From NCBI RefSeq assembly GCF_964194155.1, contig NC_135901.1:22382001-22446000 (forward strand): 64,000 nucleotides of DNA, in the 5' to 3' direction. Positions 1-60,856 of the stretch are shown here, in pieces (within the stretch, counting starts at the first letter, position 1; the number at the start of each line of letters is the position of its first letter). Origin of the DNA: Cetorhinus maximus. Its lineage: Eukaryota. A program made the position numbers and the translations under genes. The notes under the pieces were generated by a model, which was not told the DNA's origin, searched no databases, and saw only the letters and a program-made list of their open reading frames with translations.

Positions 1-255
1 GAGGAGAGGCCATTCACCTGCTCTGAATGTGGAAAGGGATTCACACGATCATCCCACCTGCTGAGCCACCAGCGCATTCACACTGGGGAGAGGCCATTTA
101 CCTGCTCCAAGTGCGGGAAAGGATTCACACAATCATCAGCGCTGCTGACACACCAGCGAGTTCACACCGGGGAGAGACCCTTCACCTGCTCCATGTGTGG
201 GAAGGGATTTAATCGATCATCCAACCTGGGGAAACACCAGCGAGTTCACATGTGA
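1..255 (+). CDS. 3' end of a C2H2 zinc-finger gene (last three fingers; begins before the window)
   Basis: Frame 1 reads [33 protein letters not shown]...GKHQRVHM*, stop at 253-255, followed by the family 3' UTR motif. Confidence 0.85.
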
Positions 256-384
256 CTGCACTGCTTTGATTCTGCTGCTGTTAATCAGATTAAGGAGTGA
301 ACCTTGTTAATTATGATATTGGGGAAGTGTTGATGCTGTTGTTGCTAACCACAGTATCTGGGCTGGAGTTGACAATTGTGAAGT

Positions 385-560
385 GCCTTTCACAATCTCA
401 GGACATCTCTGTGTGCAGTAAACCTCCACAAACAGCAATGTGATAATGACCAGAGATGATCTGTTTTTAGTGAGATTGTTTGAGGGTGAAATATTGGCCT
501 CACAGGGGAGAACTCCCCTCCTCTCCTTCCAAACAGTGGCCATGGGATCCTTCACAGTCC
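385..560 (-). mobile_element. DeuSINE (SacSINE1-like) fragment
   Basis: Reverse complement resembles the Deu-domain and tail of the copy at 55398-55855. Confidence 0.6.
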
Positions 561-1399
561 ATGTCCAAATGCAGCTACACCTGGACAATATCCAGATTTG
601 GGCTGACAAGTGGCAAGTAACATTCACGCCACAGAAGTGTCAGGCAATGACCATCTCCAACAAGAGAGAATCCAACCATTGGCCCTTGATGTTCAAAGGC
701 ATTACCATCACTGAATCCCGCACGATCAACATCCTGGGGGTTACCATTGACCAGAAACTGAACTGGACCAGCCATATAAATACTGTGGCTACAAGAGCAG
801 GTCAGAGGCTAGGAATCATGCATTGAGTAACTCACTTCCTGACTCCCCAAAGTCTGTCCACCATCTACAAGGCACAATTCAGGAGTGTGTTGGAATACAC
901 CCCACTTGCCTGGATGAGTGCAGCTCCCACAACACTCAAGAAACTTTACACCGTCCAGGACAAAGCAGTCTGCTTGATTGGCGCCACATCCTCAAACATT
1001 CACTCCCTCCATCACCGATGCACAGTAGCAGCAGTGTGTACCATCTGCAAAGTGCACTGCAAGAATTCACCAAGGCTCCTTCAACAGCACCTTTCAAACC
1101 CACAACCGCTACCATCTAGAAGGACAAGGGCAGCAGATAGATGGGAATACCACCACCTGGAAGTTCCCCTCCAAGTCACTCACTATCCTGACTTAGAAAT
1201 ATATCGCCGTTCTTCACTGTTGCTGGGTCAAAACCCTGGAACTCCCTTCCTAACAGCACTGTGACTGTACCTACACCACGTGGACTGCAGCAGTTCAAGA
1301 AGGCAGCTCACCACCACCTTCTCAAGGGCAACTAGGGATGGGCAATAAATGCTGGCCCAGCCAGCGAAGCCCATATCCCATGAATGAATGAACAAAAAA
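560..1399 (+). mobile_element. 3' fragment of an RTE-X/CR1-group-like LINE (RT C-terminus and tail)
   Basis: ORF pieces WADKWQVTF..KCQAM, LGVTIDQKLNWTSHI, SLHHRCTVAAVCTI; tail ggcaataaatgctggcc...catgaatgaa-A; same family as 37199-40411. Confidence 0.8.
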
Positions 1400-1402
1400 C
1401 AT

Positions 1403-2125
1403 CTAGAGTATTGTGTACAGTACTGTTCTCTTTATTTAGGAAAGATGTCAATGTGTTAGAAGCAGTTCAGAGAAGGTTTACTAGACTAATACCAGGAATG
1501 GGTGGGTTGTCTTATGAGGAAAGGCTTTTTTTTCATTTGTTCATGGGATGTGGGTGTCGCTGGCTGGGCCAGCATTTGTTGCCCATCCCTAATTGCCCTT
1601 GTTCAGAGGCATTTCAGAGTCAACCACATTGTTGTGGGTCTGGAGTCACATGCAGGCCAGACTTGGTAAGGATTGCACAGTAAAGGGCATTAGTGAACCA
1701 GATGGGTTTTTACAACAATCGGCAATGGTCATGGTCATCAACAGACTTTGAACTCCAGATGTTTTATTGGATTTAAATTCCAGTATCTGCCGTGGTAGGA
1801 TTCAAACCCGAGTCCCCAGAGCATTACCCTGGGTCTCTGGAATACTAGTCAGAGACAATACCACTGTGCCACCGTCTCCCCTCCCACCAAGGTTTGGCTT
1901 GGACAGGTTAGGCTTGTATCCACTAGAATTTAGAAGAATAAGAGGTGACTTAATTGAAATGTTTAAGATCCTGAGGGGTCTTGACATGGTGGATGTGGAG
2001 AGGATGTTTCCTCCTGTCGGAGAATCTAGAACTAGGGGTCACTGTTTAAAAATAAGGGGTTGTTCATTTAAGACAAAGATGAGGAGAAATTTTTTTCCCT
2101 CAGAGGGCTGTGAGTCTTTAGAACT
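1403..2125 (+). mobile_element. CR1 LINE 3' fragment interrupted by a SINE
   Basis: LEAVQRRFTRLIPGMGGLSYEER breaks near 1524 and resumes as LDRLGLYPLEFRRIRGDLIE near 1898. Confidence 0.8.
1526..1882 (-). mobile_element. tRNA-derived SINE sharing its 3' tail with the 560-1399 LINE family
   Basis: Reverse complement has an A/B-box-like head (ggtggcacagtggta...gggtttgaatcc) and the tail ggcaacaaatgctggcccagccagcgacacccacatcccatgaa. Confidence 0.75.
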
Positions 2126-2149
2126 CACCATTAGAGATATAAATTAGCC

Positions 2150-2600
2150 ACGTGGGTCAAAAAATCAAAGGGGTTGTTTGTACGGTAAAAGACAGTTAAT
2201 TTACATTTCTGTTTGGACCATCCTTGGTATATCACATCATGTAGATAGGCTGTGGGGGTTAGGAAAGTTCTTTGGTTTAATTTACCCTCTGTGTGTGGCC
2301 ATCTTGGTGATGCAACAGAGAGTGGGTGGGGCTTCATGGTCTCAGTGACCATGAGAGAAAATGATGAATTCATTGATTACATTATCACTCTCCACACAGG
2401 GACTTGAGAACAGAACCCAGCCAGATTAGAGAGAGGGATAAACTGGGAGTGAGGAGAGGAATGGTGGAGATGGTATGATGGGTTTGGCAGGATGACCATA
2501 TCTCATGGAGAAAATTAAGGGACAACCTGCCATGGGAGTCCGTATGAGTGGGTGGGAGGGTCTTGGTTGGGATGCTGCCAGAGCTGGTGAGGCGCAGAGG
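2150..2600 (-). mobile_element. Degenerate L2-like LINE fragment
   Basis: Purine-rich strand; minus-strand translation resembles L2-type ORF2 remnants; weak. Confidence 0.4.
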
Positions 2601-2940
2601 AATGGGGTGAATTGGCTGACAGAGCTGTTGGAGCACAGAAACAGTAAGGCACAGTGTTCTGCATGAGGCATGACCACAAAGGTCCAATTTAAGGGACAAA
2701 CAGTGTTCTGGCACCAGGAAGCCCAGGACAGCTGAACACAGGACAATTTTGTAAAATCCTGTACGTTTGGTCACCCTGCATTTTGGATTCCAGCACAGGG
2801 AGGAGGAAGAGTGTGTGGGATGAGGATTTACCGCCTTGCAGGAACAAGAGAGGAAACCAGGTTCCATAGAAACCAAAATTGTCTGTTTAGAATTTCTATC
2901 CTGTCTTTACAGTGATGAGTTTTGTAAACTCCTTTTCCAG

Positions 2941-5018
2941 GATATTAGAACGGGTTTTACAGGCAGGAGGCTCATACGGAACACCACAGCATGATCTGAC
3001 AGAGTCACTCGATTCATCAGGACCTGAAGATCATCAGCCTTTCAATGTGGATGGAGAAATGTTTGTCTGTTCTGCCTGTGGGGAAATGTTTCAATCATCA
3101 GTATGACTGGAAAATCACCAAGACATGCACACCTGAGTGAGAGTGTTCCAGTGTACTGACTGTGGAAAGAGCTTTAGTTACACAGCCTGAATAAAGATCA
3201 CACCATTCACAGTGGGGAGAAACCATACACATGTTCTGTGTGTGGACGAGGCTTCAACTGATTGTCCAATCTGAAGAGACACAAGGACACCGGCACCATG
3301 GAGAAACCATGGAACTGGGAGGAATGTGGTAAAGGATTCAATTCTTCATCCAGGCTGGAAATTCATCAATGCATTCACAATGGGGAAAAGCCATTCAGTT
3401 GTTCCGTGTGTGGGATGGGATTCACTCGGTCATCCGGCCTTCGGTCACACCAGCGAGTTCACACTGAGAAGAAGCCATTCAGCTGCACAACCTGTGGAGA
3501 GGGGTTCAAGTCTTCATCCATCCTCACTGAACACCAGCGGATTGACACGGGTGGGAAACCATTCACTTGCTTCGTGTGTGGGAGTTGTTGCAAGGATATG
3601 CTTTTGCTTCAGTGACTGGAAGCCAGTGTCCTGTGGCGTACCACAGGGATCTGTGCTGCGACCCTTATTATTTGTCATTTATATAAACGATATAGATGAC
3701 TATGTGGGGGGTAGGATTAGTAAGTTTGTGGATGACACAAAGATTGGCCGGGTAGTTAACAGTGAGGTTGAATGTCTTGGGCTACAGGAAGATATAGATG
3801 GGATGGTGAAATGGGCAGATAAGTGGCAGATGGAATTTAACCCTGACAAGTGTGAGGTGATACACTTTGGAAGGAGTAATTTGACAAGGAAGTATTCAAT
3901 GAACGGCATGACACTAGGGAGTTCTGAGGCGTATGTGTCCATAGATGTCTGAAGGTGGAGGGGCATGTTAGTGGGGTGGTGAAAAAGGCATATGGGACAC
4001 TTGCCTTTATCAATCGAGGCATAGATTACAAAAGTAGGGAGGTCATGTTGGAGTTGTATAGAACCTTGGTGAGGCCACAGCTGGAGTACTGTGTGCAGTT
4101 CTGGTCACCACATTATAGGAAGGATGTGATTGCACTGGAGGGGGTGCAGAGGAGATTCACCAGGATGTTGCCTGGGATGAAACATTTAAGTTATGAAGGG
4201 AGGTTGGATAGACTTGGGTTGTTTTCGTTGGAGCAGAGAAGACTGAGGGGCGACCTGATCGAGGTGTACAAGATTATGAGGGGCATGGACAGGGTGGATA
4301 GGAAGCAGCTATTCCATTTAGTTGAAGGGTCAGTCATGAGGGGACATAAGTTCAAGGTGAGGGGCAGGAGGTTTAGTGGGGAATGAGAGGAAAAACATTT
4401 TTACCCAGAGGGTGATGACTGTCTGGAATGCACTGCCTGGGAGGGTGGTGGAGGCGGGTTGCCTCACATCCTTTAAAGAGCACTTGGCACATCATAACAT
4501 TCAAGACGATGGGCCAAGTGCTGGTAAATGGGATTAGGTAGGTAGGTCAGGTGTTTCTCACGTGTCGGTGCAGACTCGATGGGCCGAAAGGCCTCTTCCG
4601 TACTGTGTGATTCTGTGGGGGAAGGGATTCACTGGTGTATTCGCCCTCCAGTAACACCACCGAATGCACATGAAGGAGAAGCCATTCAGCTGTACTGCTG
4701 CGTCAGCTGCAGAAAGAGTTTCAGGCAGTCAACCGACCTCAGTGAACACCAACGTACTCACACTGCGGAGAAGCCATTCACCTACTCCATGTGTGGAAGG
4801 GATTTCCTTGGTCATCCCAACTGCTGACACATCAGCGAGTTCACATTGGGGACAGACTGTTCACCTGCTCCTTGTGTGGGAAGGGATTCCCTTGGTTATC
4901 CCAACTGCTGACACATCAGCGAGTTCACACCGGGGACAGACCGTTCACCTGCTCCTTGTGTGTGTCGGGATTCACTCAGTCACAACACCTACTGAGATAC
5001 GAGCGGGTTCACCTGTGA
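2941..5018 (+). pseudogene. C2H2 ZNF pseudogene (MEKPW type) disrupted by a CR1 insertion and frameshifts
   Basis: Acceptor ttttccag at 2933-2940; leader; accATGg at 3298; fingers to CFVCG at 3583; resumes GKGF at about 4617; family 3' UTR after 5018. Confidence 0.85.
3605..4616 (+). mobile_element. 5'-truncated CR1 LINE inserted inside a zinc finger
   Basis: RT motifs GVPQGSVL, FVDDTK, WQMEFNPDKC, LEGVQRRFTRM; CR1 tail gatgggccgaaaggcc...tgtgattctgtg. Confidence 0.9.
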
Positions 5019-5705
5019 TTACAGGGGTTGGATTCTGCTGTTTTTCTTGCTGTTAATCACACCCAGGATCGATAGTCTGACAATAATTGGTTTGTTTCTG
5101 CTGATGTTAACCAAACTGTAACTGGCTAAAGTTTAATATTCTGGAAATGTCACTGATTTTCAGGGCTGCATTGTCCCTTTTTAAAAGCTTCATCTGTGAT
5201 CTTTCCCCTTAGTACGAGAACTCTCAATAGGAGCTAATTTACAATAAAATTCTGAACTTTTACTTCAATCTTAAATTGATCTTTGATGCAAACTCTACAG
5301 TTCAGTGTTTGAAAGGTTCCACTGATTAACATCTCCAATTAGAAAGTGCTGATTAACCCTTGCTGACAATTCTTACTGACTTCCACATTCTTCACAGTGA
5401 CACCTCCATTATGAAGTTAAATTATGAATGAACAGCAATTAAAATGGTGAAATATTTTACAGGCAGATCAATAAAAGCTTCATCAATCAACATTGATATT
5501 GATGAAGTTTGGAAGTCGCTGATTCAATCATTTCTGACACAGCAGCAGCAACATTTGGTAAAGGTGGAACCCACACAAAGACTGGTTTGAGACCGACTCA
5601 GCAGAGATGACATCTGTCATTGAAGCAAAAAGCAAAGCCCACCTGATGCACAACATAAAGCCAACAGCCAAATACTGTGTGCAGTTCTGGTCACCATATG
5701 AATTT

Positions 5706-6003
5706 AAGGGGAGGTGGTGGAGTGGTATTGTCACTGGACTCGTGTTCCAGAGACCCAGGGTAATGGGGATGCGGGTTTGAATCCCACCATGGCAGATGGT
5801 GGAATTTGAATTCAAATATCTGGAATTAGAAGTCCAATGATGACCATGAAACCATTGTCATAAAAACCCATCTGGTTCACTGATGCCCTTTAGGAAAGGA
5901 AATCTGTCATCCTCACTTGGTCTGGCCTACATATGACTCCAGACCCATAGCAACTCTTAAAAATGCTCTCTAACAAGGGCAATTAGGGATTGGCAATAAA
6001 TGC
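5706..6003 (+). mobile_element. tRNA-derived SINE (same family as 1526-1882)
   Basis: ggtggagtggtattgtcactggact...gggtttgaatccc head; aaaacccatctggttcac body; ggcaattagggattggcaataaatgc tail. Confidence 0.75.
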
Positions 6004-6029
6004 ATGGGTTTATATGTCATGAGAACGCA

Positions 6030-6432
6030 CACACCAAACAAACTGGGTCTCTTTTCTTTTGAAATAAGACGTGTGAGGGCTGAGCTAATCATTTAAAACG
6101 ATGAAAGGTTTTGATAGAGAGGATACAGGGAGAATGTTTACTCTTGTGGAGAAAAGCGTAACTAGACACCATCAATATAAGATTGTCACCAAGAATCCAA
6201 TAGGGAATTCAGAAGAAACTTCTTCACCCACAGATGGAGTGAGTGAAGTGAATAGTATCAAAGTACTTATGGGGAGGCTGGACAAACATATGAGGGAGAA
6301 GGGGATATTGGGTTACGGTGATAAATTTGGAAGTGGAAAGATGGGAGGAGGCTCGAGTGGAACATAAACACCGAAATGGACTGGATGGGCCGAATGGTCT
6401 GTTTCTGTGCTGTATGTCAATGTAATCCTATC
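6030..6432 (+). mobile_element. Old CR1 3' fragment
   Basis: MKGFDRED..MFTLV remnant; tail gatgggccgaatggtctgtttctgtgctgta. Confidence 0.65.
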
Positions 6433-6433
6433 T

Positions 6434-7630
6434 AAGGCTTCAACTGATTGTCCAACCTGGAGAGACACAAGGACACCCACAACAGGGAGAAACCATGGAA
6501 ATGCGGGGACTGTGGGAAGGGATTCAGCTCTCCATCCCAGCTGGAAACTCATTGGCTCAGTCACACTGGGGAGAGACTGTTCCCCTGCACCATGTGGAGG
6601 AAGGGATTCACCGAATCATCCAGCTTCCAGAAACGCCAGCACACTCACAGAGGAGAAACTGTGAAACTTACACTGTGTGTGGGAAGAGATTCACTCAGTC
6701 ACCCATTCTCCAGATACAGTCTGTAAGAATTCTGTTCTTTCTTTGTCTGTGTATTTATATAGTCTGTCAGAGTTGTGTTCTTTCTTTGCCTGTGTGTTGA
6801 TCTGCAGGGTAGAGTCTGTGGGGGTGATGTCATGCTTTGAACCGGCTTGTCCTAGTTTGGAACTGAGAGATGGTGGAAGTGCAGAAGTTCTATGTAATCA
6901 CAGAGGAATGTGTGTGCTCTCAACAACAGGCGAACGCTGTTCAGATGAACACACCTGTGATTGGACAAGAGCCACATAATTGTGTAGTGAAATGTACATG
7001 GACAGTTCTGATTGGTGGCCTCAGGGGAGCCAGTTGGGTGGGGGGTGGTGGGGGTTTCCAGCATAAAAACAGTCCTCTCAAGGGGTTTGATGCAGTGGAG
7101 AAAAGAACAAAGGGAAGAAGACAAAGAAATAAGAAAAAAGCCAGAAAGCTGGAAACTCCACACGAAAACCAGAAGCTACGGGGAAAGAAGTGCGCTCTGC
7201 TATCCAGATACGACATGGGAAGTATAGAGCTCACATTATTCTGTTATCACTGCTTGAACTTTACCTTTAGTCCAGAAGTTTGTCCTGCCTTTCTCTTAAT
7301 AAAGCTGCTCCATAACTGAACTTTATTGTCACATCCGATCCTGTTGTAAGTAAGGAGTTCAATCCCTACAACCCGCAAGTTCACATCAAGGAGATTCTGT
7401 CCATATGCTCCATTTGTAGGAAAGGATTCACTTGTGTGTCCAGCCTCACTGCCCATCAAGTTGTTCACTCTGATAAGAGACCTTTTAATTGTTATCATTG
7501 TGTGAAGAGTTTTAAAAGCTCTAAAGATCTGATGAAATACCAACTCACTCACACTGAAGAGAACCCATTCACCTGCACTGACTGTGGGAAGAAATTCACT
7601 ACTCACTCAACCTGCGGACACACCAATCAC
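6434..7630 (+). pseudogene. C2H2 ZNF pseudogene split by a solo LTR
   Basis: [14 protein letters not shown] fingers 6484-6717, resuming HPQVH...HSDKRPFNCYHC at 7371; frameshifts. Confidence 0.8.
6722..7370 (+). mobile_element. Putative solo LTR (about 649 bp)
   Basis: Begins TGTAAG, ends CTACA; CATAAAA near 7062; AATAAA at 7298-7303; interrupts a finger; TSD unclear. Confidence 0.6.
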
Positions 7631-7684
7631 CCTGCCAATGGAAACAATTTCTACCAATGTAAATGAAAACTCCTAAAAAATAAT

Positions 7685-8100
7685 CATTTCCACACCTCTA
7701 TTAAATCAGTCCTTAACCTTTTCTGCTCTAAAGAGAACAATTCCAGCTTCTCCAGTTTCTCCACGTAACTGAAACCTCTCATCCCTGATACTATTCTGGT
7801 AAGTTTTCTCTGTACTCCAAGGCCTAGACATCTTTCCCAAAGTGTGGTGCTCAGAATTGAGCACAAGACTACAGCTGATCAGTGATTTATAAAGATTTAG
7901 GATAACTGCCCTGCTTTTCCACTCCATGTCCCCATTAGTAAACCAAGGTTCCCATTATATTTTTATAAACAATTGATCAACATGTCCTGACGGATTCAAA
8001 GGTTTGTGTCCATACACTCCCAGGTAACTCTGTTCCTGCATTCTGTTTAAAATTGTACCATTTAGTTTATACTGCCTCTCCTCATTCGTCCTTCCAAATG
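7685..8100 (-). mobile_element. CR1 fragment
   Basis: Minus ORF VQRKLTRIVSGMRGFSYVEKLEKLELFSLEQKRLR. Confidence 0.7.
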
Positions 8101-8539
8101 CATCATTGACTGTGAATCACTTTGAGATGTTCTGAGGATGTGAAAGGTGCTAAGTGAACACGAGAACTTTCTTTCTTTTACAGCTGATTAAAAGTTGTAG
8201 ATTTTGATCCAAAGATTAAATTGAGATTGATATTCAAAGTTAACTACTTTACTGTAGACAAAATCTAACTGGGAGTCAGTGAATTAAGAGGAAAGATCCC
8301 AAACAACGGTTCTTCAAGGTACACTGCAGGCCCGGCAGCTCAATCAGCTCCACTCTCAGCTCAGGAGACCTCAACAACTCCACAAACTGTCCACAGGGGA
8401 ATTCTCCTGGTGCAGTGGGACCAATATTCGTGCTTTAACTATCACCACCAAAAAAAACTGAATTAATCAGTCACTGGTCTGATTGCTGTTTGTGGAATCT
8501 TACTGTGCACAAACTGGCTGTCGTGAATCAGTAACTGGT

Positions 8540-10237: not shown

Positions 10238-10948
10238 TCACTGTAGAAACTTGTGAACTTGCTGGTGCTTTAGCAGCGTGAATGAAGTTGTGAATCCTTT
10301 CCCACACTCAGAGCAGGTGTATGGCCTCTCCCCGGTGTGAATTCGCTGGTGATTCAGCAGGGTGGATAACTGAGTGAATCCCTTCCTACATTCCATGCAG
10401 GTGAATGGCCTCTCCCCAGTGTGAATTCGCTGGTGCACAGTGAGCTGTTCTGATCGCCTGAATCCAGTCCCACAATGAGAGCACCTGAATGGTCTCTCCT
10501 CAGTATGAACACGTTGATGGGACATCAGTTCCCCAGAACTTTTAAAGCACTTCTCGCAGTCCGGGCATTTGAAAGGTCTCTCCTCAGTGTGAACTCGCTG
10601 GTGTGTCAGCAGGTGGGATGACTGAGTGAATCCCTTCCCACACTCGGAGCAGGTAAATGGCCTCGCCCCAGTGTGATCTCGCTGGTGTTTCAGCAGGCTG
10701 GATGACTGAGTGAATCCCTTCCCACACATATAGCAGGTGAACGGCCTCTCCCCAGTGTGACTGCGTCGATGAGTTTCCAGGTCAGACGGGTAATTGAATC
10801 TCTTCCCACAATCCCCACATTTCCACGGTTTCTCCCCAGTGTGACTGCGCTTGTGTCTTGACAGGCCAGATGATTGTCTGAAGCCTCGTCCACACACAGA
10901 ACACGTGTACTGTTTCTCCGCGATGTGAACGGTGCTCTTTCCTTTCAT
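10238..10948 (-). CDS. C2H2 zinc-finger protein, 8 fingers, no effector domain (about 236 aa, MKGKSTVH type)
   Basis: Open ORF with TGERPF linkers; aacATG at 10948; family 3' UTR with AATAAA at 10119-10124. Confidence 0.85.
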
Positions 10949-16849: not shown

Positions 16850-17260
16850 TTAACTGGAGAACGCTAAGAACGTGGAACTTATTACCAGGAGCATTTGGGA
16901 TTCGTGTCTGAGCTGGAAACTCATAGGTAAAATCCCCCCGTGGAGATAAGATACTTTGCCATATGAATGTGGAAATGGATTCACTCAGTCATCCCATTTA
17001 CTGACACAACAGCACAGTCACACCGGAGGGAGACCACTCAGACACTTCCCGTGTGTGAAGGGATTTGCTCAGTTAAGCCACTGGTTAACATTCCAGCTTT
17101 AAAACCTAAAGGCACTTTCATGTCAGTGCTTTCATGTTGGTGAGGGGCAGTTTAACTATTCTGTCTATGGGGGAAAAAGCACTTTTATACCTCACCTGCT
17201 GAGACCCCGGTGAGTTCACACCTAACTGTAGGTGTTTGTTCTGCTTTTAATCACACCCAG
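16850..17260 (+). pseudogene. Highly decayed ZNF relic upstream of a promoter
   Basis: gaatgtggaaatggattcactcagtcatcccatttactgacacaacagc ([16 protein letters not shown]); paralogs at 47100-47480 and 51695-52060. Confidence 0.6.
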
Positions 17261-17399
17261 TACAAAACTATGTTAGAGGGCCTGTGGTCTTTAGTTGCTG
17301 CATCAATTAATTTAATACATTGGTATCGTGGCCCAATGGCTCCAATCGTAATCGAATCGCACAACTTTATGTTCCATCAACTATCGATCTTCAATGGCA

Positions 17400-17800
17400 A
17401 GGATCTTACCCAGCATTCGCTGCGAGTATGAATGTGCTCTGTCCTCATTACAGGGGCTCCTCGCGCCTTACGATCCGAGCATGCGCAGTGCGGCTGTCAC
17501 TGGAACTGCAAGGAACGGATAGGAAGTGATCGAGTGCAGTTGAGTAATGGAGCTGGTGGCTGGGTGAGGAGGATTAGAACCATCGATGTGGGCGGGGATG
17601 CTTCATAAGTACTCAGTGTAGACCTGAAGCCCGAAATAAAAACTTATCGATCCCGCCTTGGCACCGAACGGAGTATAAGCAATGGGACTCCTCCTGCTCG
17701 TAGGCCTGGTTTGCCGGCCGCCATCTTTGTGGGGGGCAATGTGCAGCACTGCGTGTGCGCGCCCGCTTATTTATTGGGGGTGATCCTGGACCAGGAGCAG
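17400..17800 (+). promoter_or_regulatory. CpG-rich promoter, probably of the 20954 ZNF gene
   Basis: gcatgcgca (NRF1-like), ggaagtga (ETS-like), gccgccatcttt (YY1); paralog of 52200-52600. Confidence 0.55.
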
Positions 17801-25080: not shown

Positions 25081-25199
25081 TGAAGGAATGGACCATGAGC
25101 TGGAGCTCAGTTTTCAAGCTGGTCTGAGGAAGGTCTGAAATCAGATTTACATTCAGATATCTGTAAGGGCAATAAAGTTTACATTATGTTTTTAAAACG

Positions 25200-43148: not shown

Positions 43149-43479
43149 GGTGCTGGTGTCCTTCTGTCTCTCCAACTTGGAAGATTAGTTGAAGCCTCGT
43201 CCACACACACAACACTTGTACATTTTCTCCTCGCTGTGAATGGTGTGATTCTTTTCAGGAACACTCTCACTCGGGTGTGTGCGTCTTGCTGCTTTTCCAG
43301 TCACACTGATGTGTGAAATCTCTTCACATGGACAAACGTTTCTCCTTCCATGTTCAGAGACCAATGATATTCAGGTCCTGATGAATCGAGTGACTCTGTC
43401 AGATCTTGATAATTGGTTTTAGTTTCCCATCTGTAAATCTTCCCCTCCTAACACCCTGTAAAAAAAAGTTTACATCGAA

Positions 43480-45040
43480 TTACACAGAATAGACAGAATA
43501 GAAACAGGCCATTTGGCCCAACTAGTCTCTGCTGGTCTTTATACTCCACATGCTTCTCATTCCATTCCATCTACCTCAGCTCAGTCTTTCACTTTATTTT
43601 TCTATTCCTTTTTCTCTCATGTACTCGTCTAGTTTACTTATGAAATTATCTCAGCTTTTTGCCACAACTGCTCCTTGTGGTGGTGAGTTCACTTTCGAAC
43701 CACTCTGAGTAAACACATTTCTCCTTATTTCCCTGTTGGATTTATCAGTAACTATCTTGTACTTCTGGCCCCTGGTTTTGGATTCACCCACAAGTGGAAA
43801 CATCTACTTCTACAATGTCTCACATGGCAGGCTGGGCAGAAAAATAAAAAGTCAAGGAACCCGAGAGCAAGATGCAAGTTGGAATCAAAATAGGCTCAAT
43901 GGCAGGAAGCGATGAATGACGGTCAATGGGTGCTTTTTTTATGATTGGAAGGCTGTTTCCAGTGGGGTTTCACAGGGCTCAGTACTGGGTCCTTTATTCA
44001 TGGTTTATACCATTGATTCAGACTTAAACGTAGGGATGTGAATAACAAGTTTGCAGATGATACAAAAATAAGGCCGTGTGCTTGGTAGTGAGATAGAAAG
44101 CAGTGTCCCTTAATTCTCAATTCCCTCACAAGAGGAAACATATTCTTGGTATCTACCCTGTCAAGATCCCTCAGAATCTTGTATGTCTCAATAAGATCAC
44201 CTCTGATTCTGCTCAGCTCCAATGGATACAGGCCCAACCTTTCCTCATGAGACAGCACCTTCATCCCAGGAATCAGCCCAGTGAACCTTCTCTGAACTGC
44301 TTCCAGTGCATGCATATCCCTCCTTGAGTAAGGGGACCAAAACTGTACACAGTACTCTAGATGCAGTCCTACCAATTCCTTGTACAGTATTAGCAAGATT
44401 ACCCTACTTTTATACCCCATCCTCCTTGTAATAAAGGCCAACATCCCATTTGCCTTCCTAATCACTTGCTGTACCTGAATGTTAACTTTTTGTGATTCAT
44501 GTACAAGGACACCTAGATCCCTCTGTACTGCAGCCTCTCTCTATTTCAATAATATTTTGCTTTTCTATTCTTCCTGCCAAAGTGGACATCCTCACATTTT
44601 ACCACATTATACTCCATCTGCCAATGTTTGCCTACTCACTTAGCCTATCTATATCCTTTTGCAGACTCTTTGCATCCTCCTCACAACTTGCTTTCCTACC
44701 TATCTTTGTATCATTAGAAAATTTAGCTACAATACAATTGGCCCCTTCAGCCAAGTCATTTGTATAGATCCTAAATAGTTGAGGCCCCAACACTGATCCC
44801 TGTGGCACTCCACTAGTTACAGATTGCCAACTGGAAAATGGCCCATTTATCCCAACTCGATCTTTCCTGTTAGTTAGCCAATCCTCTATCCATGCTAATA
44901 TATCACCCTCAACACCATGAACTCCTATCTTGTGCAGTATCTTTTAATGTGACAATTCATTGAAGGCCTTTTGGAAATCCAAACACACTCCATCTACTGG
45001 TTCCCCTTTATCCACCCTGCTTATTACATCCTCAAAGAAC
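43480..45040. mobile_element. Nested CR1 fragments (43480-43810 minus, 43815-44100 plus, 44105-45040 minus)
   Basis: KANGMLAFITR..LEYCVQFWSPY..; GVSQGSVLG, KFADDTK. Confidence 0.7.
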
Positions 45041-45269: not shown

Positions 45270-45855
<586 letters not shown>

Positions 45856-46449
45856 AAAAATGATTTAAAATAGAAAAGGGGAGTAAGAGAGAACCCATTA
45901 AAACATAAAGGCAAGGTGTGAACTTGAGCTGAATGAATCTGGTAATTTGTGAGGCCGGCACTAGGAAAAAGTGACCATGAAAACTGCTGGATTGTCGTAA
46001 AACTCCAACTGGTTCACTAATGTCCTTCAGGGAAGGGAACCTACCATCGAGTTACCCTACACAAGACTCTTGGGAAGATTGAGAGAAAGGGAGAGAGGGA
46101 GTGGTGAAGGAGAGGGATTTTATATTTCTACAACTAAGCTAGAAGTTTCCCACAGTTACCACATTTATACAGTTTCTCCCCGGTGTGACTGCGCTTGTGG
46201 CTCGACAAGCTAGATTATTGGCAGAATTCTCATCCACAGAAAGCACATATGTACAATTTCTCCCTGTTGTAAACGCAGCTTTTTCCTCCCAGGTTCAAAA
46301 TTATATGATATTCAGATTAGGATAATCTGCCAGTCTGAACCTACACAAGGCCCTGGCCTCGCTAGGGGGAGGGAGACAGAGAGGGGGGTAGATTTTATGT
46401 ATCATCAACCTGATCAGAACTTTGACAAAACCTTCTAAACCCTCAACCT

Positions 46450-46900
46450 CTACCACCTAAAAGTAAATCCTTCCCTTCTCACCCCCTGCAAAAGGAGTTT
46501 CGAAAATCCATCCCTCAGATAGAAATTCACAACACTCTCTCCTCCTGCTGACAGGGGCAGGGATGACTGCGCATGCGCCCTGCAGTACATTGCTCCCTAT
46601 AAAGATGGCGACCCTTAACGCGCGCCTGTCATCAGGTTCAGCCCCGCGGCTGCTGCCCCGCATGGACTAAATGCGGGATTGGTAGATTCTTAATTTTGTT
46701 CCCAGGCATCCACTGGATGTTTATGAGGCCTTCTCGCCCATTTTGCCTCCTCCATTACCCACCTATAATCAGCCGCTGTTCACCGGTTGCGGAGTCGAGA
46801 TGACCGCCTCACAGTCGCTCCAGCACATAGAGTGCGCACGCACCCACGGGAACTAAATGCGCATGCGCAACCCACGCCTGCACCATGATTTCCTATGGTG
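46450..46900 (-). promoter_or_regulatory. CpG-rich promoter plus acceptor module (inverted paralog of 52200-52730)
   Basis: gcgcatgcgc twice; aagatggcg (YY1). Confidence 0.55.
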
Positions 46901-47929
46901 AGTATAGGGCACATTCTGTATCGTCATGGATGCTGGGTAAGATCCGCACCATTAAAACACGACATTGTTGAATAGAAAGCTATGATTTGTGATCGGACTA
47001 CGATGGAGCCATGGGGCCAATATATAAAACTATTAAATTAATTGATACAGCAAAGTGGCCCTCCATCATAATTATGCCCTGGGTATAATTAACAACAGAA
47101 CAAACCACTGCAGTTAGGTGTGAACCCATTGAAGTCTCAGCAGCTGGTGGGTGAGCAAGTAATTTTTCTTCCCCATTCACGGAACATTTAAACCACGTCT
47201 TGCCTGTAAGAGACAAGTGGATAAAATCCTTTGAACTTTTAAAGCTGGGGTGTGAACAGGTGGGCAAACTGAATAAATCCCATTGCACAAGTGTAGTATC
47301 TGAGTGGTCTCTCTCTGGAGTGACAGTGCTGCTGTGTCAGTAAATGGAATAACTGAATGAATCCATTTCCACGTTCAGCTGGTGAACAATCCATTCATGG
47401 GTGTGAATTGACCCATCAGTTTCCAGCTCAGATGAGGATCTCAAACCCTTCCGGTGATGAATTCCAGATTCTCAACATGCTCCCAGTATAAAAATACTGT
47501 CGGTGCTGTAAATCGGAAATAAAAACAGACAATTCTGAAATTTCAAGCAGACCTGATAACATCTGCAGAGGGGAAATATAATTTACATTTCAGGTCTGCA
47601 ACCTTTCAATGAAATGTTAATCATGTTTTCCAATCCACAGATGCTGCCAGACATGGTGAGGATTTGAAGCATTTTCTGTTTTTATCTCCTGTTGAAGAAG
47701 TTTCTCCCGAATTGCACATTAGTTTTATTGATGATGAACTTATATTTATTCTCATCCATCTGCAACTGGAAACATCTTCCACTTGTCTGCCTTGTCAATC
47801 CCTTTTATAATCTTAAAAACTCGATCAGGTCATCTGTCACTCTCTTTACCAGGGAAAACATCTCTAGCTTGTTCAATCTTTCTTGATAGATATAACCTTG
47901 CAGTTTTGGCATTATTCCAGTGCATTCCA

Positions 47930-51691: not shown

Positions 51692-52199
51692 TCATTTCAG
51701 GAAGGGTTTGAGATTCCCATCTGAGCGTAAAGTGATGGGTAAGATCACAGCAGAAATATCATCACCAACTGAAGGTGGAAAGGGATTCAGTTGGTCATCC
51801 CATTTACCAACACAGCAGCACAGTCACAGTGCAGAGTGACCTTTCACATATTTCACGAATGAGAAAGGAATTACTTAGTTTTCTCACCTCTCAATCCACC
51901 AACTTTGAAAGTTCAAATGATTTGATTCACAATCAGTGCATTCTGACTAGCAAGAGACAGCTTAAGTGTTTTGTGTCTTGGGAAAACTCCACGCACTGAC
52001 AGTCCAGTGAGTTTCCATCTAACTGTTAAAGTATTAATTTCTATTAATTACACCCAGGATAGAAATATGGTGGAGGACCCGTGCACTTTGGTTGCCGTAT
52101 CAATTGATTTAATAATATTATATTTTGGCCCTGTGACTCCAATCGATCATAAAACATAATTTTCTATTCAACAATATTATACTTCAATGACCGGAGTCT

Positions 52200-52600
52200 T
52201 ACCCAGCATTCGCGGCGGGGCAGAACGTGCCCTATCCTCGCTGCAGGAGCTTCTTGCGCAGGCGCACTACCGGGTGTGACTCGAGCATGCGCTTTGCGGG
52301 CGCTGAGTACAGCATGCGCAGTCGAGGCCGCACCAGGAACTGGTCGAAGCTGTTCACAAATATCGAGTCCAGGCGAGTAAATGAAGCCGGTGGATGGGGA
52401 GGATTAAAGACGGCAGAGTGGGTGGGGAGGCTTGATAAATACCCACTGGCTGCCTCAACGTCGGAATAAGGAGCTAGAGCTCCCGAGGTCGCAGCGAACG
52501 GGAAGGTAGCTGCGGGCCGCGGTTCTCAGTCACAGGCCGCAGTTAACGGCCACCATCTTTACAGGGGGGGGCGAAAGTGCAACAGAGCGCATGCGCGGTC
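52200..52600 (+). promoter_or_regulatory. CpG-island-like promoter of the 53220 ZNF gene
   Basis: Several gcatgcgc/gcgcaggcgc (NRF1-like); ccaccatcttt (YY1-like); high CpG. Confidence 0.6.
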
Positions 52601-52739
52601 ATCACTGTCCCTATCAGCAGGAGGAGAGAATGTTGTGCATTTCTATCCTGGACTGACAGGGATGGATTTTGGAAACTCCTTTTACAGCGGGTTAGAAAGG
52701 GAAGATTTACACACAGCAAACTCAAACTCCTCTGACATA

Positions 52740-53070
52740 GGTCTTTAAAATTCTGATTGAGTTGGACAGATAGATGTGGACAGAATGTTTACACTTCTTG
52801 TTCGTAATAAATCCAAGAGGAAAACGGGAGATATTTCCGTCCTCAGACAGTTGTTAGAATGTGGAACTCTACTACAGGAAGTGGTTGAGACAAATCCCTT
52901 AGATGCTTTCAAAAGTAAACTAGATGAGAACAAGAGAAGAAAGGGATTCGAAAGATAAACTGAAAGGCTGAAATGAGGTCGGCAGAATGGAGGAGACTCC
53001 TGTGGAGTAGAAACTCCAAGACAGACTAGATAGACCAATTAGCCTGTTTATGTAATGTATGTTCCATGTA
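52740..53070 (+). mobile_element. Old CR1 3' fragment
   Basis: gatgtggacagaatgtttacactt..gatgctttcaaaagtaaactagat. Confidence 0.55.
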
Positions 53071-53285
53071 ATTCTTTGTAAACTTATTTTACAGAAAAAA
53101 GAAGAGGAAGATTTGCAGTCAGGAAAAGTAAATCAAACTTTACATCAAAATCTGACAGTCTCTCAATTCATCTGGATCTGAAGATTTGTATATCTGAAGG
53201 ATTTAATTGACCGTCTCAGTTGGAAACCAGTGAGAGGCTGTTCACCTGCTCCTCCTGTGTGAAGGGATTGATACAGCTGGTTAAC

Positions 53286-55049
53286 ATGCTGACACGACAG
53301 CGAGCTCACAACAGTGAGAGGCTGTTCACCTGCTCCGTGTGTGGGAAGAAATTCATGTGTTCATCCAACCTGCTGGCACACCAGCTCAATCACATTGATG
53401 AGGAGCCTCTTCAATGCTCTGACTCTGGGAAAAGCCTTGAAACCTCTGAGGAACTGGTCCAACACCAGCAAGTTCACACTGATGAGAGACCATTCAGCTG
53501 CTCCCACTGCGGGAAGAGGTTCAGGCTGTCCTCCCGCCTCGCGGAGCACCAGCTCCTTCACACACACGAGAGGCCGTTCAGCTGCTCTCACTGTGGGGAG
53601 TCGTTCAGCGAGTCAGTGCATCTCACTGAGCACCAGCAAGTTCACACCAAGGACAGGCCGTTCAGCTGCTCCCAGTGTGGGAAGAGATTTGCTCAGTCCT
53701 CCCATTACACTGAGCACCAATTGGTTCACTCCGATAAGAGACCTTTTAAATGCTCAGAGTGTGAGAAGACCTTTAAAAGACACAGTGAACTGTTGAGACA
53801 CCAGCGGACTCACACCAGCGACAGGCCATTCACTTGCTCTGTGTGTGGGGAGAGCTTCACCCATTCAGTCCAACTTCTGAAGCACGAGGGTGTTCACAAT
53901 GGGGAGAGACCCTTCATCTGCTCCGTGTGTGGGAATGGATTCACTCGGTCATCCAACCTTCTGGCACACCAACGGGTTCACACCGGGGAGAGGCCGTTCA
54001 CCTGCTCTGACTGTGGGAAGACATTTACTCGATCATTCCACCTTCTGACACACCAGCGAATTCACACAGGGGAGAGACCGTTCACCTGCTCTGAGTGCGG
54101 GCAGGGATTCACACGGTCATCCCACCTGGTGAGACACCAGCGAGGTCACACTGGGGAGAGGCTGTTCATCTATTCCGCATATGACAAGAGAGTTCCTGAA
54201 TCCTCCCAATACACTGAACACCAACGTGTTCACTCTGATAAGAGAACTTTTAAATGTTCTGAATGTGAGAAGACCTTTACAAGAAGCAATGACCTGCTGA
54301 GACACCAGCATATTCACACTGGGGAGAGGCCATTCCTCTGCTCTGAGTGTGGGAAGACATTTGCGCATTCATCTGATCTGGTGAAACACCAGCGTACTCA
54401 CTCTGGGGAGAGGTCATTCCTCTGCGCCGAGTGTGGGAAGAGATTCATTCGGTCATCTGATCTAGTGAGACACCAACGCACTCACACTGGGGAGAGGCCA
54501 TTCACCTGCTCTGAGTGTGGGAAGGGATTCACTCTGTTAGCCAACCTGCTGAGACACCAGCGAGTTCACAGTGGGGAGAGGACGTTCCTCTGCTCTGAGT
54601 GTGGGAAGAGATTCACTCAGTCATCCCACCTGCTGAGACACCAGCGCATTCATACCGAGGAGAGACCTTTTAAATGCTCTGACTGCGGGAAGTGCTATAA
54701 AACCTCTGGAGAACTGATGTACCATCAACGCGTTCACACTGAGAAAAGACCGTTCAGGTGCTCTCACTGCAGGACTGGGTTCAGGAAGTCATCTCAACTC
54801 ACTTTACACCAGCGAATTCACACTGGGGAGAGGCCGTTCACGTGCTCCGATTGTGGGAAGGGATTTGCTCACTCAGGCACCCTGCTGACACACCAGCGAA
54901 TTCACACTGGGGAGAGGCCGTTCACCTGCTCCGAGTGTGGGAAGGGATTTACTTGTTCACACCACCTACTGAGACACCAGCGAGTTCATAGGTCACCGGC
55001 AAAGTTGGATTTTCTTGATTTTGCTGCTGAGAATTACCTCCAGGACTGA
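53286..55049 (+). CDS. Large C2H2 zinc-finger protein (21 finger repeats in the open frame from 53220, 3 degenerate), extended C-terminus
   Basis: Uninterrupted frame 53220-55049; first ATG at 53286; acceptor ttttacag ending 53094; in-frame TGA at 53208. Confidence 0.85.
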   Translation: MLTRQRAHNSERLFTCSVCGKKFMCSSNLLAHQLNHIDEEPLQCSDSGKSLETSEELVQHQQVHTDERPFSCSHCGKRFRLSSRLAEHQLLHTHERPFSCSHCGESFSESVHLTEHQQVHTKDRPFSCSQCGKRFAQSSHYTEHQLVHSDKRPFKCSECEKTFKRHSELLRHQRTHTSDRPFTCSVCGESFTHSVQLLKHEGVHNGERPFICSVCGNGFTRSSNLLAHQRVHTGERPFTCSDCGKTFTRSFHLLTHQRIHTGERPFTCSECGQGFTRSSHLVRHQRGHTGERLFIYSAYDKRVPESSQYTEHQRVHSDKRTFKCSECEKTFTRSNDLLRHQHIHTGERPFLCSECGKTFAHSSDLVKHQRTHSGERSFLCAECGKRFIRSSDLVRHQRTHTGERPFTCSECGKGFTLLANLLRHQRVHSGERTFLCSECGKRFTQSSHLLRHQRIHTEERPFKCSDCGKCYKTSGELMYHQRVHTEKRPFRCSHCRTGFRKSSQLTLHQRIHTGERPFTCSDCGKGFAHSGTLLTHQRIHTGERPFTCSECGKGFTCSHHLLRHQRVHRSPAKLDFLDFAAENYLQD

Positions 55050-56535: not shown

Positions 56536-56544
56536 ATACATATG

Positions 56545-57635
56545 AATCAGAATCACAGTGCAGAAGAGGCCCTACAACCCGTTGACTCTGCACCGACACG
56601 TGAGAAACACCTGATCTACCTATCTAATCCTATTTACCAGCACTTGCCCCATAGCCTTGAATGTTATGACGTACCAAGTGCTCATGCAGGTACTTTTTAA
56701 AGGATGTGATGCAACCCGCCTCCACCACCCTCCCAGGCAGTGCATTCCAGACCGTCACCACCCTCTGGGTAAAAAAGCTTTTCCTCACATCCCCCCTAAA
56801 CCTCCTGCCCCTCACCTTGAACTTATGACCCCTTGTGACTGACCCATCAACTAAGGGGAACAGATGCTCCCTATCTACCTGTCCATGCCCCTCATAATCT
56901 TGTCCATCTGAATCAGGTCGCTCCTCAGACTTCTCTGCTCCAACGAAAACAACCCAAGTCTATCCAACCTCTTTTCATAACTTAAATGTTTCATCCCAGG
57001 CAACATCCTGGTGAATCTCCTCTGCACCCACTCCGGTGCAATCACATCCTTCCTATAATGTGGCGACCAGAACTGCACACAGTACTCCAGCTGTGGCCTC
57101 CTTGTTAAATTACTCCTTCCAAAGTATTTCACCTCACACTTTTCAGGGTTAAATTCCATCTGCTACTTATCTGCCCATCCCGTCTGTATCTTCCTGTGGC
57201 CCAAGACACTCAACCTCACTGTTAATCACCCGGCCCATCTTTGTGTCATCCGCAAACTTACTAACCTTACCCCCCACGTATTCATCTATGTCGTTTCTAT
57301 AAATTACGAATAATAGGGGACCCAGCACGGATCCCTGTGGTACGACACTGGCTTCCAGTCACGAAAGCAACCTTCTGTCATCATCCTCTGTCTCCTACAA
57401 CTAAGCCAATGTTGAATCCACCTTATCAAATTACCCTGTATCCCGTGTGCATTTGCCTTCTTTATAAGTGTCCCATGTGGGACCTTGTCAAAGGCTTTAC
57501 TGAAATCTATATAAACTACATAAACTGCACTACCCTCATCTACGCACCTGGTCATCTCCTCAATAAGTTTAATCAAATCTGTTAGGCATGACTTCCCTCT
57601 GACAAAGCCATGCTGACTGTCCCTGATCAAATCTT
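56545..57635 (-). mobile_element. CR1 LINE 3' part (same subfamily as 3605-4616)
   Basis: SQHGFVRGKSCLT, DFSKAFDKVPH, EFNPEKCEV; tail matching 4500-4616. Confidence 0.85.
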
Positions 57636-57999
57636 GCCTGATTAGGTGTTGATTACTATTTGAAGCTTAACTAGTGTGAGTCATCTCAGCTCACCTCAGC
57701 TCTATTTCAGAAAGGGACTATTAGAAGCACACGAGCAGGGGAGAGACCTCATCCTGAGTGAGACACAGCCAGAGTGAGTGTGGGTCTTGGCAATTTGCTG
57801 CACAGTGGGAATTGAACTGGTAAGTCTTTCTCTTTAATTTCTCTGAGTTCAGTAGTCTAGTTAAAAGGTTGCTCAGGTAGCTGACTCACCTGACTGTGTG
57901 ACAGTTAACTGTCAATCACCTGAAGCCTGATTAGGGCCTGAATAGGTGTTGATTACTATTTGAAGCTATATTCAAGACATTACTGCAGTCGATCCTCTC

Positions 58000-58770
58000 T
58001 GATTATCACCAGACTTGACCATGTCTCTATTTATATTGTACATGACCCTGTTATTTGTGCCCTTGATGCTGTCTCAGTTACAAACTAGACCATGTTTCTG
58101 TTTATGTTTCATTAGACCCTGTCTCAGTTATTTGACCATGTCTCTAATTATATCTACCTGTAGTACACAAGGCCCTGTATTAGTAACATTACTAACAATT
58201 CGAAAGTACTTAATTAGGTATAAAGTGTTTTGACACATTTGGTGATCATGAAATGAGCTATATAAATGCAAATATTTCTTAATATTATTTTGAACTGTAC
58301 TAGACCTTGTCCTGGTTTATAGTACACTACTGATTACTACACTGGACCCTGTCCCTGTTTATAATGCACTCGGCCCTGTTTTGCTTTTAACTTACCTTGA
58401 CCATGGCTCAGTTATTGCCACATAAGGCCAGCCCACTATTTGCACTACACTAGGCCCTGTCAAAGCAGCTACTGCAGTCGACTGTGCCACTGTAATTTGG
58501 GCCCTCTGTCTGTTACATTACAGTGGGCCATATCACAATATATCTTAGTTATTATTGCACTAGAGTCAGACCATGTCTTGCTTAATATTCCACTAGGCAC
58601 CATCCTTTTCATTACTGCACTAGATCAGGTCTTGGTTTATTTTACTGCTCCTGCTGTATCAGTAATCACTGCACTGGACCCTGTCTCAGTTGAGATTAAC
58701 CTGGGCTCTGTCTCAGTCATCCCTCCACTAGACCCTTTCTCAGTTTATATTAACCCAGACCCTGTATCAA
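58000..58770 (+). repeat. Decayed tandem repeat (approximate unit cactagaccctgtctcagttatta)
   Basis: Recurrent gaccctgt/gaccatgt and tctcagtt words. Confidence 0.55.
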
Positions 58771-58889
58771 TAATCAATTGCAGGGTTATGGAGAAAAGGC
58801 GGGAGAGTGTGATCAACTAAGTGATGCTAGAAGATAAGACCGGCCAATTGTCCTCCTTCTCTGTTGGAACCATTGTTTGATTCTTATAC

Positions 58890-59225
58890 TAATGGCAGGC
58901 GCAGTTCCCACAATCCCCCGCGCCCCAGAAACCACTCTATCCAACTCGCTCCTTTCCCCAGGCGCTGAGAGTGCGCATGCTCCCCAGGACCACCCGCGGG
59001 GCATTCTGGGCAGCTCCTTTGTTGTGAGTCGGACCCGGTGGAAACGGGAGAAGAAACCGGGAAGCGGCGGCGAGGATGGGGGAGGCGCTGCAGCATCGCT
59101 TTAATGGGCAGCCCCGACCCCCAGTCCCCCAGCCCGGGGAGACCACCGCCGGGCCCGGCCGCTCTCATTCGGCCTTAGAGAGCCGCACTCGCTGTTCTTG
59201 AGGCTGCGCTCGCCTCCCGCTCAGT
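58890..59225 (+). promoter_or_regulatory. CpG-island-like promoter of the 60014 ZNF gene with two ZNF143(SBS)-like and one NRF1-like site
   Basis: ttcccacaatcccccgcg 58905-58922; reverse complement tgcccagaatgccccgcg 58995-59012; gtgcgcatgc 58971-58980. Confidence 0.6.
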
Positions 59226-60013
59226 TTCTCCATTGAATCCTGTTTCTCTCCTTGTTTTTCCCAACTCAGATTCACCGCCTCATTTTCTTTTCTTCCTCTG
59301 AGCCCCTGAACTCCATCAGACAGGGTCATGTTGGAGAGCGGGCATTGACTGTCCTGGGAAACAACAGCAAGAGGAGCTCAGAGGCCGGAGGAGCAAAGGG
59401 AGCAATGAATTCAGTCACCAATCGCGGGGGATTGAGGACTGGACCCTGAGTCAGTCAGTCAGAAGAGTCAGAGTGAACCCCTGGGGAATCATTCATCTCT
59501 GAAAAATTAAATGAGTATCTCTTTAATCAACAACACAATTTAATATTTATCAGTTCATTTTTTTTTATTCTTTGTTATCTCAAACCCAGGACATCGCTGC
59601 AGGAATTCCTCAGGTCAGTATCCTGGGCCCAACCATCTTCAGCTGCTTTATCAATAACCTTTTTTCCATCATAAGTCAGACTTGGGAATATATTGCCGTT
59701 CCTTCATTGTCGCTGGGTCGAAATCCTGGAACTCCCTTCCTAACAGCGCCGACACCACATGGACTACAGCAGTTTAAGGAAGTGAACAGGAAGATTTGCT
59801 GACAGGAAACTCAAACCAAAAATCACGTCAAAATCTGACAGATTCACTCAATACATCAGGCGCTGGATATCATTGAACCTTCAATGTAGAAGGAGAAATG
59901 TTTTAACCAACTGTACAGCCTGAAAAAACTTTTAATCATTCACAGCGGGGATAAATTGTGTACGAGGTTTGGACTGACCATCCAACATGGACAGCAACAA
60001 GGACAACGGCACC

Positions 60014-60856
60014 ATGGAGAAACCATGGAAATGTGGGGACTGTGGGAAGGGATTTGGTTCCCCATCAAAGCTGGAAATTCATCAACGCAGCCACACTGGG
60101 GAGAGGCCGTTTACCTGCTCCATGTGTGGGAAGGGATTCACTAGTTCATCCAACCTTCTGAGACACCAGCACATTCACACTGAGCAGAGTTCAGTCATCT
60201 GCTCCGTGTGTGGGAAGGCAATCGGTCATTCATCAAACTTTCTGAGGCACCAGCAAACTCACAGTGGAGAGAGGCCGTTCACCTGCTCCGTGTGTGGGAA
60301 GGGATTCACTCAGTCATCCTACCTACTGACGCACCAGCGCATTCACACAAGGGAGAGTCCGTTCATCTGTTCCTTGTGTGGAGAGGGATTTAATCGATTA
60401 TCCAGACTTCTGAATCACCAGAGAATTCATACTGGGGAAAGTCCATACACCTGCTTTATCTGTGGGAAGGGATTTAATCGGCCATCCAAACTACTGACAC
60501 ACCAGCGAATTCATACTGGGGAGAGGCCATTCACCTGCTCCATGTGTGGGAAGGGATACACCAATTCGTCTGACCTGTTGACACATCAGCGAGTTCACAC
60601 TGGCGAGAGGCCATTCACATGTTCCATGTGTGGAAAGGGTTTCATTCGGTCATCCCACCTTCTGACACATCAACTTGTTCATACTGATCAGAGACCTTTT
60701 AAATGTTCTGAGTGTGAGAAGACATTTAAAAGTAAAAAGGATCTGCTGACACACCAACGAGTTCACACTGGGGAGAGGCCGTTCACCTGCTCCGTGTGTG
60801 GGAAGGGATTCACTCAGTCATCCACCCTGCTGACACATCAGCGAGTTCACAAGTAA
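60014..60856 (+). CDS. C2H2 zinc-finger protein, 10 fingers, MEKPW type (alternative in-frame ATG at 59987)
   Basis: accATGg at 60014; open ORF; leader at 59785-59900; family 3' UTR. Confidence 0.85.

Follow-up and report, generated by a model that had tools for sequence, protein, structure and literature searches.

The 64-kb stretch of Cetorhinus maximus DNA analyzed here (positions 22,382,001-22,446,000 of contig NC_135901.1, hereafter C24; "the window") carries C2H2 zinc-finger (ZNF) genes and their remnants. C24 is 65.16 Mb long in a genome of 3.99 Gb. A sequence-only reading of the window had proposed at least 12 ZNF arrays or pseudogenes on both strands. Using a profile built from the window's own 84-base finger units, we detected 19 C2H2-derived arrays, on both strands and spanning positions 1-60850, of which 15 had at least three units, which bears out the earlier count; a pattern scan returned 76 canonical fingers. 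Seven frames held at least five canonical fingers, including one that begins 944 bases before the window. A methionine lies ahead of the first finger in six of the seven, which we call intact genes, but not in the frame at 23228-23929; the other arrays are broken or fragments. The features are listed below with their strand; open reading frame is abbreviated ORF and long interspersed nuclear element LINE, and exon boundaries, splice acceptors and start sites here and throughout are sequence predictions.

1-255, plus: 3' end of an intact 11-finger ORF whose ATG lies 698 bases before the window
2941-5012, plus: broken ZNF gene with its acceptor at 2941; arrays at 3062-3584 and 4614-5012 flank a LINE-like stretch and are probably one gene split by a LINE-like insertion
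6484-6718, plus: ZNF fragment that begins with the hallmark W-type finger
7389-7626, plus: degenerate ZNF fragment
10238-10948, minus: intact 8-finger ORF, start MKGKSTVH (class A), acceptor eroded
16964-17219, plus: degenerate finger remnant preceding a CpG promoter block and related to copies at 47244-47378 (minus) and 51775-51903 (plus)
17401-17800, plus: CpG island with an NRF1-like motif and a YY1-core promoter element (motif names presumptive)
20845-20953, plus: conserved acceptor and 109-nt untranslated leader, with two in-frame stops before the ATG
20954-21991, plus: intact class A ORF that starts MEGKSTVH and has about 12 finger units, 9 of them canonical
23228-24167, minus: probable ZNF pseudogene; its acceptor is at 24167, and its 6-finger open frame has no methionine
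24401-25200, minus: CpG-island promoter block of the 23.2-kb gene
27717-28648, minus: frameshifted ZNF pseudogene, acceptor at 28648
29500-30963, minus: broken 16-unit ZNF gene, acceptor at 30963; a paralogue of the 10.2-kb gene across about 4 kb of upstream DNA
33801-35200, strand unassigned: CpG islands with NRF1-like and YY1-core elements; an additional acceptor copy lies at 33625
41091-41173, minus: lone finger fragment
42321-43455, minus: intact 9-finger ORF, ATG at 43148, start MEKPWK (class B); acceptor at 43455 and three in-frame stops before the first finger
45282-46485, minus: ZNF pseudogene pieces (45282-45731 and 46147-46265), acceptors near 45850 and at 46485
46401-47000, minus: CpG promoter block
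52201-52800, plus: CpG promoter block with NRF1-like motifs at 52256, 52283, 52310 and 52587, a YY1-like core at about 52549 and an acceptor copy at 52688
53095-55049, plus: acceptor at 53095 and intact 18-finger ORF (ATG at 53286)
58801-59400, plus: CpG-island promoter region of the 60-kb gene
59987-60856, plus: intact 10-finger ORF, ATG at 59987 or 60014, start MEKPWK; belongs to a young clade with near-invariant fingerprints

The fingers form tandem 28-residue C2H2 repeats with conserved linkers, the pattern of lineage-specific poly-finger expansions. Across 789 fingers, which carry 473 different fingerprints, helix positions -1, 3 and 6 were the most variable (entropy 3.2-3.35 bits), confirming the combination of conserved linkers and variable helix residues described from sequence alone.

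The family extends along the whole of C24. Arrays were present in 17 of 30 spaced 10-kb samples taken between 0.5 and 64 Mb (11/20 and 6/10 in two sets) and in none of 10 such samples from other large contigs, so their presence on C24 is not due to chance. The 300 kb of C24 samples contained 26 arrays of at least three units and 10 intact primary frames with a methionine, from which we estimate roughly 3,700-8,300 arrays and 1,000-4,000 intact genes on C24 (Poisson range). When the genome was searched with two probes from the window, the best 40 scored matches all fell on C24 or on small contigs. C24 therefore shows chromosome-scale clustering like that of FiNZ genes. For detailed analysis we used five C24 blocks (1,104 kb) picked around ZNF-rich places, in which we found 150 arrays of at least three units and 89 frames with at least five fingers, a count that includes some halves of one gene.

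Copies share a recurring order: a CpG-island block with NRF1-like repeats and a YY1-like core, a conserved acceptor, a leader, the finger array and a 3' tail. The promoter motifs, which we take to be those of NRF1 and YY1, include NRF1-like sites at 13.0 per 100 kb on C24 versus 2.0 elsewhere, and a common 3' tail motif follows 35 of the 89 frames. Two start classes were distinguished. In class A, MEGKST begins 15 residues before the first cysteine, often with a stop 8 codons upstream; in class B, MEKPWK lies in a linker that reads TMEKP where TGEKP is expected, with a dead finger ahead and a stop 12 codons upstream. The earlier proposal of one reusable cassette thus holds for the promoter block, acceptor, leader and 3' tail, but not for the start classes, the mosaic arrays or the co-duplicated two-gene blocks described below. 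Contigs from four runs that we presumed to be RNA covered the promoter-near segment 59042-59461 as well as finger exons, and the start of one contig lay 3 bases past the predicted acceptor at 53095. Many promoter copies (e.g., window positions 52549-52688) also carry a donor-like site that lies past the second NRF1-like motif and some 75 bases short of the acceptor copy, which suggests a conserved mini-intron in the 5' leader. A dead finger remnant abuts the promoter block directly upstream in three copies (16964-17800, 46400-47378 and 51775-52700); the duplicated unit therefore takes in a piece of the neighboring gene.

Starting from the 89 frames, 65 had a well-scoring acceptor, and 52 primary genes were retained once frames that were second halves, or whose acceptor lay over 400 bases off, had been dropped. 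The finger frame was open from the acceptor to the first finger in only three of the 52 (3/65 before filtering), and 43 of the 52 had a methionine after the last in-frame stop. None of the 52 had a further pyrimidine-rich acceptor beyond the last stop, whereas 20 of the 52 main acceptors passed the same cut-off. Leader dN/dS (the ratio of nonsynonymous to synonymous substitution rates) was 0.79-1.17 across the six frames in 13 genes, with none different from 1. With no frame departing from neutrality, a fossil coding leader or an upstream ORF was rejected, at the low power given by 13 genes and 35 codons. A protein search with the leader translation returned no candidate. The finger repeats made up a median of 97% of each protein in 50 genes; the tail after the last finger was at most 25 residues in 46 of these, and the four longer tails were mostly degenerate fingers.

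Domain searches gave the same picture. Among 16 window frames compared with Pfam (best 25 families for long finger frames), there was no match to KRAB, SCAN, BTB or ZAD, while a control KRAB domain that we take to be PRDM9-like was detected; no genome-wide ZAD search was made. Across the genome, KRAB had four matches among the 150 of 152 candidates that were scored: three of them, PRDM9-like, lie on C34, the fourth is a weak one on C22, and C24 has none. BTB was absent from C24 among 150 scored matches (218 candidates genome-wide), as was SCAN among the best 150 of 4,987 genome candidates. Purpose-built KRAB, SCAN and BTB profiles found nothing below E 0.7 in the 1,104 kb of C24 blocks; the KRAB profile recovered its three control loci, and the SCAN profile was built from five sequences with no positive control. 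Together with 88 non-shark ZNF N-termini, these profiles matched only finger-like stretches in the blocks, among the matches listed. Indirect evidence speaks against a FiNZ domain: an upstream fusion of that type is blocked by the leader stops, and no conserved upstream peptide was found. The earlier statement that the ORFs and upstream exons contain no KRAB, SCAN or BTB domain was borne out by these searches of window frames, C24 blocks and genome candidates, and the lack of a recognizable fused effector is supported by the rarity of open frames (3/52), the neutral leader and the absence of domain matches on C24. Based on the leader stops, the neutral leader, the short tails and the unmatched KRAB, SCAN and BTB domains, we predict that the proteins are very probably finger-only.

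A short effector that escapes recognition might nevertheless be spliced on at either terminus, or be made as a separate small first-exon protein, so that the family would work like FiNZ- or KRAB-ZNFs. The two-part gene layout is that of KRAB and FiNZ genes, N-terminal extensions appear in some public models of shark genes, two of them beginning MAAV/IN, and in 12 of 13 class A genes one leader frame has no stop within the first 29 codons. However, in-frame stops lie behind the acceptor in 49 of the 52 genes with no strong later acceptor, and the dN/dS of the stop-free frame (0.81) did not differ from 1. The first-exon peptide MAAVN, a lead taken from the public models P0081 and P0061, was rejected: it is a reading of the YY1-like core whose frames diverge between copies, and of 106 copies of the element 84 face away from the acceptor closest to them. 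We therefore consider a hidden effector highly improbable. A screen of same- versus opposite-orientation upstream sequence for exons was uninformative because neighboring genes lie head to head. Public shark and skate models P0011, P0060 and P0035 join these arrays to histone H2A, NACHT or LINE sequence and look like annotation chimeras.

The arrays evolve as a chromosome-wide birth-and-death set, as the sequence-only reading had suggested: 89 intact frames stand against 150 arrays in the five blocks, many arrays are broken, and paralogues are mosaic. The 53.2-kb and 60.0-kb genes recur as a pair, separated by some 7 kb, at four further places, which indicates multi-gene duplication. Paralogues of the 53.2-kb gene have their first fingers in common while later blocks differ. 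Internal finger types also recur in the C24 blocks: many genes reuse, as a unit, CPDC..CY, frequently with CSHC.TGF behind it. In a clade paralogous to the 60-kb gene (L164-L172), the same break occurs in nine copies, some of which may be haplotype duplicates, so this clade went on duplicating once broken.

If segmental duplications had amplified in a mainly neutral or selfish way, with the proteins doing little, this would account for the many pseudogenes, the co-duplicated multi-gene blocks and the clade that spread while already broken. Within young clades, however, dN/dS was 0.05-0.07 at the Cys/His positions and 0.33 in the framework of young intact copies, versus 0.7-1.0 outside the fingers; pre-selection of intact copies lowers the Cys/His and framework values somewhat. 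The Cys/His values indicate functional proteins, and neutral amplification is largely refuted and scarcely credible as the main explanation.

Selection on DNA-contact residues was measured with a self-written fixed-site codon model, with branch lengths scaled from a nucleotide tree, applied to the first W-type finger and the next finger in 44 genes. Contact positions (-1, 2, 3 and 6) gave a dN/dS of 1.63 (p = 5e-6 against 1) versus 0.40 for the framework, and 1.78 with a tree built without contact codons. Peaks in the second finger fell at -1 (2.1), 3 (2.8) and 6 (2.3). For unselected same-type pairs, raw ratios ranged from 0.9 to 1.6 with kappa set to 1 and from 1.5 to 2.2 with kappa set to 5. 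A pairwise dN/dS of 2.3 was set aside as biased, the pairs having been chosen by lowest synonymous distance.

The hallmark W-type finger was first or second in 46 of 50 primary genes and at no later position in them. It also marks the lineage. A protein search with the N-terminal 45 residues of the gene at 20954 returned 109 proteins, 17 of them from sharks, skates and rays; the hallmark finger occurred in 14 of these 17 and in none of the other 92, the first figure being biased upward because the query itself held this finger. The proposed cartilaginous-fish origin is thus supported. Precomputed domains showed no KRAB, SCAN or BTB in the 17 chondrichthyan matches. An automated count lists 475-3,586 ZNF ORFs in seven chondrichthyan assemblies (PMC10547256, supplement 2), and the main text of that paper, as available, does not mention sharks. 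The words zinc, znf, c2h2 and krab do not appear in the accessible part of preprint 10.1101/2025.06.08.657570. ORF counts for sharks are already published, but no description of a shark ZNF chromosome was found in the literature searched, which lies outside subscription journals and bioRxiv supplements.

Taken together, the best bet, by a narrow margin over doubt, is that C24 carries a chromosome-wide family of finger-only proteins likely to be a repertoire of readers against transposable elements (TEs), silencing by occupancy or through a partner in trans. The shared CpG promoter block and acceptor lead into a leader that evolves neutrally and is full of in-frame stops. The predicted protein begins at MEGKST or MEKPWK, 6-15 residues ahead of the first finger, and stops shortly behind the last one. 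Copies spread via single-gene and multi-gene duplication, and many die. New specificities arose through point changes at helix positions -1, 3 and 6 and exchange of finger blocks, and purifying selection then holds the fingerprint within young clades. Silencing may proceed by target occupancy or by a partner recruited in trans, for which the fixed N-terminal W-type finger could serve as a docking site. TEs as the main targets, to which we lean, are suggested by analogy with FiNZ- and KRAB-ZNFs and by the correlation of ZNF number with retroelement number across metazoans (PMC10547256). In zebrafish, FiNZ knock-down leads to TE derepression, as described in the same paper; FiNZ gene and TE expression showed no significant correlation in one study (PMC11603059, in part).

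Several observations weigh against this proposal. Contact dN/dS was 0.38 in a young clade (19 unique of 21 full-length frames, 40 copies) and 0.41 in a second (7 of 21 copies); each value was significantly lower than 1 (p < 0.001), and variant counts agreed with and without CpG changes. Gene conversion between fingers could inflate dN/dS above 1, and the pre-selection of intact frames is a further caveat on these estimates. LINE-like fragments were no denser on C24 than elsewhere (20.6 versus 22.0 per 100 kb, one query), and the Drosophila ZAD-ZNF expansion appears not to target TEs, as presented in PMC10547256. No intron-bridging read or contig was seen among contigs of the four runs presumed to be RNA, and some public shark gene models contain extra N- or C-terminal sequence. 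The W-type framework was no more constrained than that of the next finger (0.41 versus 0.38), and its contact residues diversify too (dN/dS 1.45, p = 0.017); since neither sets this finger apart, its position is what argues for docking. The dN/dS check at helix positions called for by the sequence-only reading thus showed diversifying selection across the 44 paralogues and purifying selection in the two young clades. The codon model points to diversification of contact residues followed by retention of the fingerprint within young clades. Positive selection at -1, 3 and 6, as in lineage-specific poly-finger expansions, was accordingly found at family depth and not within the two young clades. 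Purifying contact selection in young clades and the lack of LINE enrichment on C24 argue against a running arms race.

The same purifying selection would suit ordinary lineage-specific transcription factors for host genes (in development, immunity or the nervous system), spread by segmental duplication and kept by dosage or sub-functionalization. Squid chromosome 15 provides a precedent: it likewise holds most of a very large C2H2 repertoire (1,675 of 2,785 genes), in an independent lineage and, unlike what we describe, together with protocadherins (PMC9068888, as far as available). Yet the frequent death of copies (150 arrays against 89 intact frames, a number that includes halves) and the contact dN/dS above 1 point to conflict, and we regard host-gene regulation as improbable. 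Alternatively, finger-only proteins might organize heterochromatin and have as their binding targets satellites, repeats at centromeres or telomeres, or the ZNF chromosome, with repeat turnover or meiotic conflict rather than active transposons as the driver. This predicts an identical sequence signature, fits the lack of LINE enrichment on C24 and has a parallel in ZAD-ZNFs, which organize heterochromatin without clear TE targeting, according to PMC10547256. The 473 fingerprints in 789 fingers would fit many dispersed targets better than a few satellites, and we consider this explanation quite unlikely.

In layout and evolution the C24 family resembles the FiNZ cluster of zebrafish 4q and the KRAB clusters and is a member of neither. 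Like FiNZ-ZNFs (Wells et al. 2023, PMC10547256, in part), it comprises hundreds to thousands of tandem C2H2 genes on one chromosome, with an upstream exon, one finger exon and contact-residue selection in some clades only; however, the FiNZ upstream exon encodes a 28-residue acidic domain, a fusion that the shark leader stops block. Clustered birth-and-death evolution, TGEKP-type linkers and positive selection at -1, 3 and 6 are shared with tetrapod and coelacanth KRAB-ZNFs, as described in PMC8835667 and PMC2604467. Unlike these, C24 lacks KRAB matches and its finger exon is rarely open from the acceptor, so TRIM28 recruitment by KRAB cannot apply; SCAN-ZNFs and BTB-ZFs are set apart by defining domains that were not matched on C24 among scored candidates or in the blocks. 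Emerson and Thomas (2009; PMC2604467, in part) reported finger-only predictions in all species they examined and left annotation failure possible, whereas the in-frame stops of the C24 family argue for a real lack family-wide.

ZNF expansions track transposon load across animals, and the tested cases rely on a fused domain (KRAB or FiNZ). With thousands of members and a gene structure that leaves no room for such a domain, the C24 family makes it testable whether arrays silence alone or a finger doubles as effector. It would also supply the part on cartilaginous fishes that is missing from the history of transposon control in vertebrates. Because copies have a leader and start motif in common, knock-down and expression tests of the whole family are practical. 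In its boldest form, which we think unlikely, the TE-reader proposal would give sharks a third independent vertebrate genome-defense system on a dedicated chromosome, with thousands of effector-less arrays silencing transposons and a W-type finger, common to sharks and rays, docking a co-repressor.

Zebrafish 4q is rich in immunity genes, but co-location with NLR genes was not found here, as none of 76 NACHT matches fell on C24; NACHT/NLR-type clusters lie on C36 (3.7-11.0 Mb), on C16 (3.6-8.2 Mb) and at the ends of C11 and C21. The three ancestral KRAB exons on C34, presumably PRDM9-like, lie within 280 kb (9.12-9.40 Mb; one at L001:1360-1680, minus strand) and are possibly a duplicated PRDM9. 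The 4,987 SCAN-like candidates are spread over many contigs, many with stops, and are presumably retrotransposon capsid-like sequence. No tRNA genes were found in the window. LINE-like reverse-transcriptase or 3' fragments lie at 422-1400, 3600-4610, 17990-18590, 43990-45040, 56550-57670 and 61670-62900, and a short repeat recurs at 14764, 16713, 25221, 35554, 50424 and 51553.

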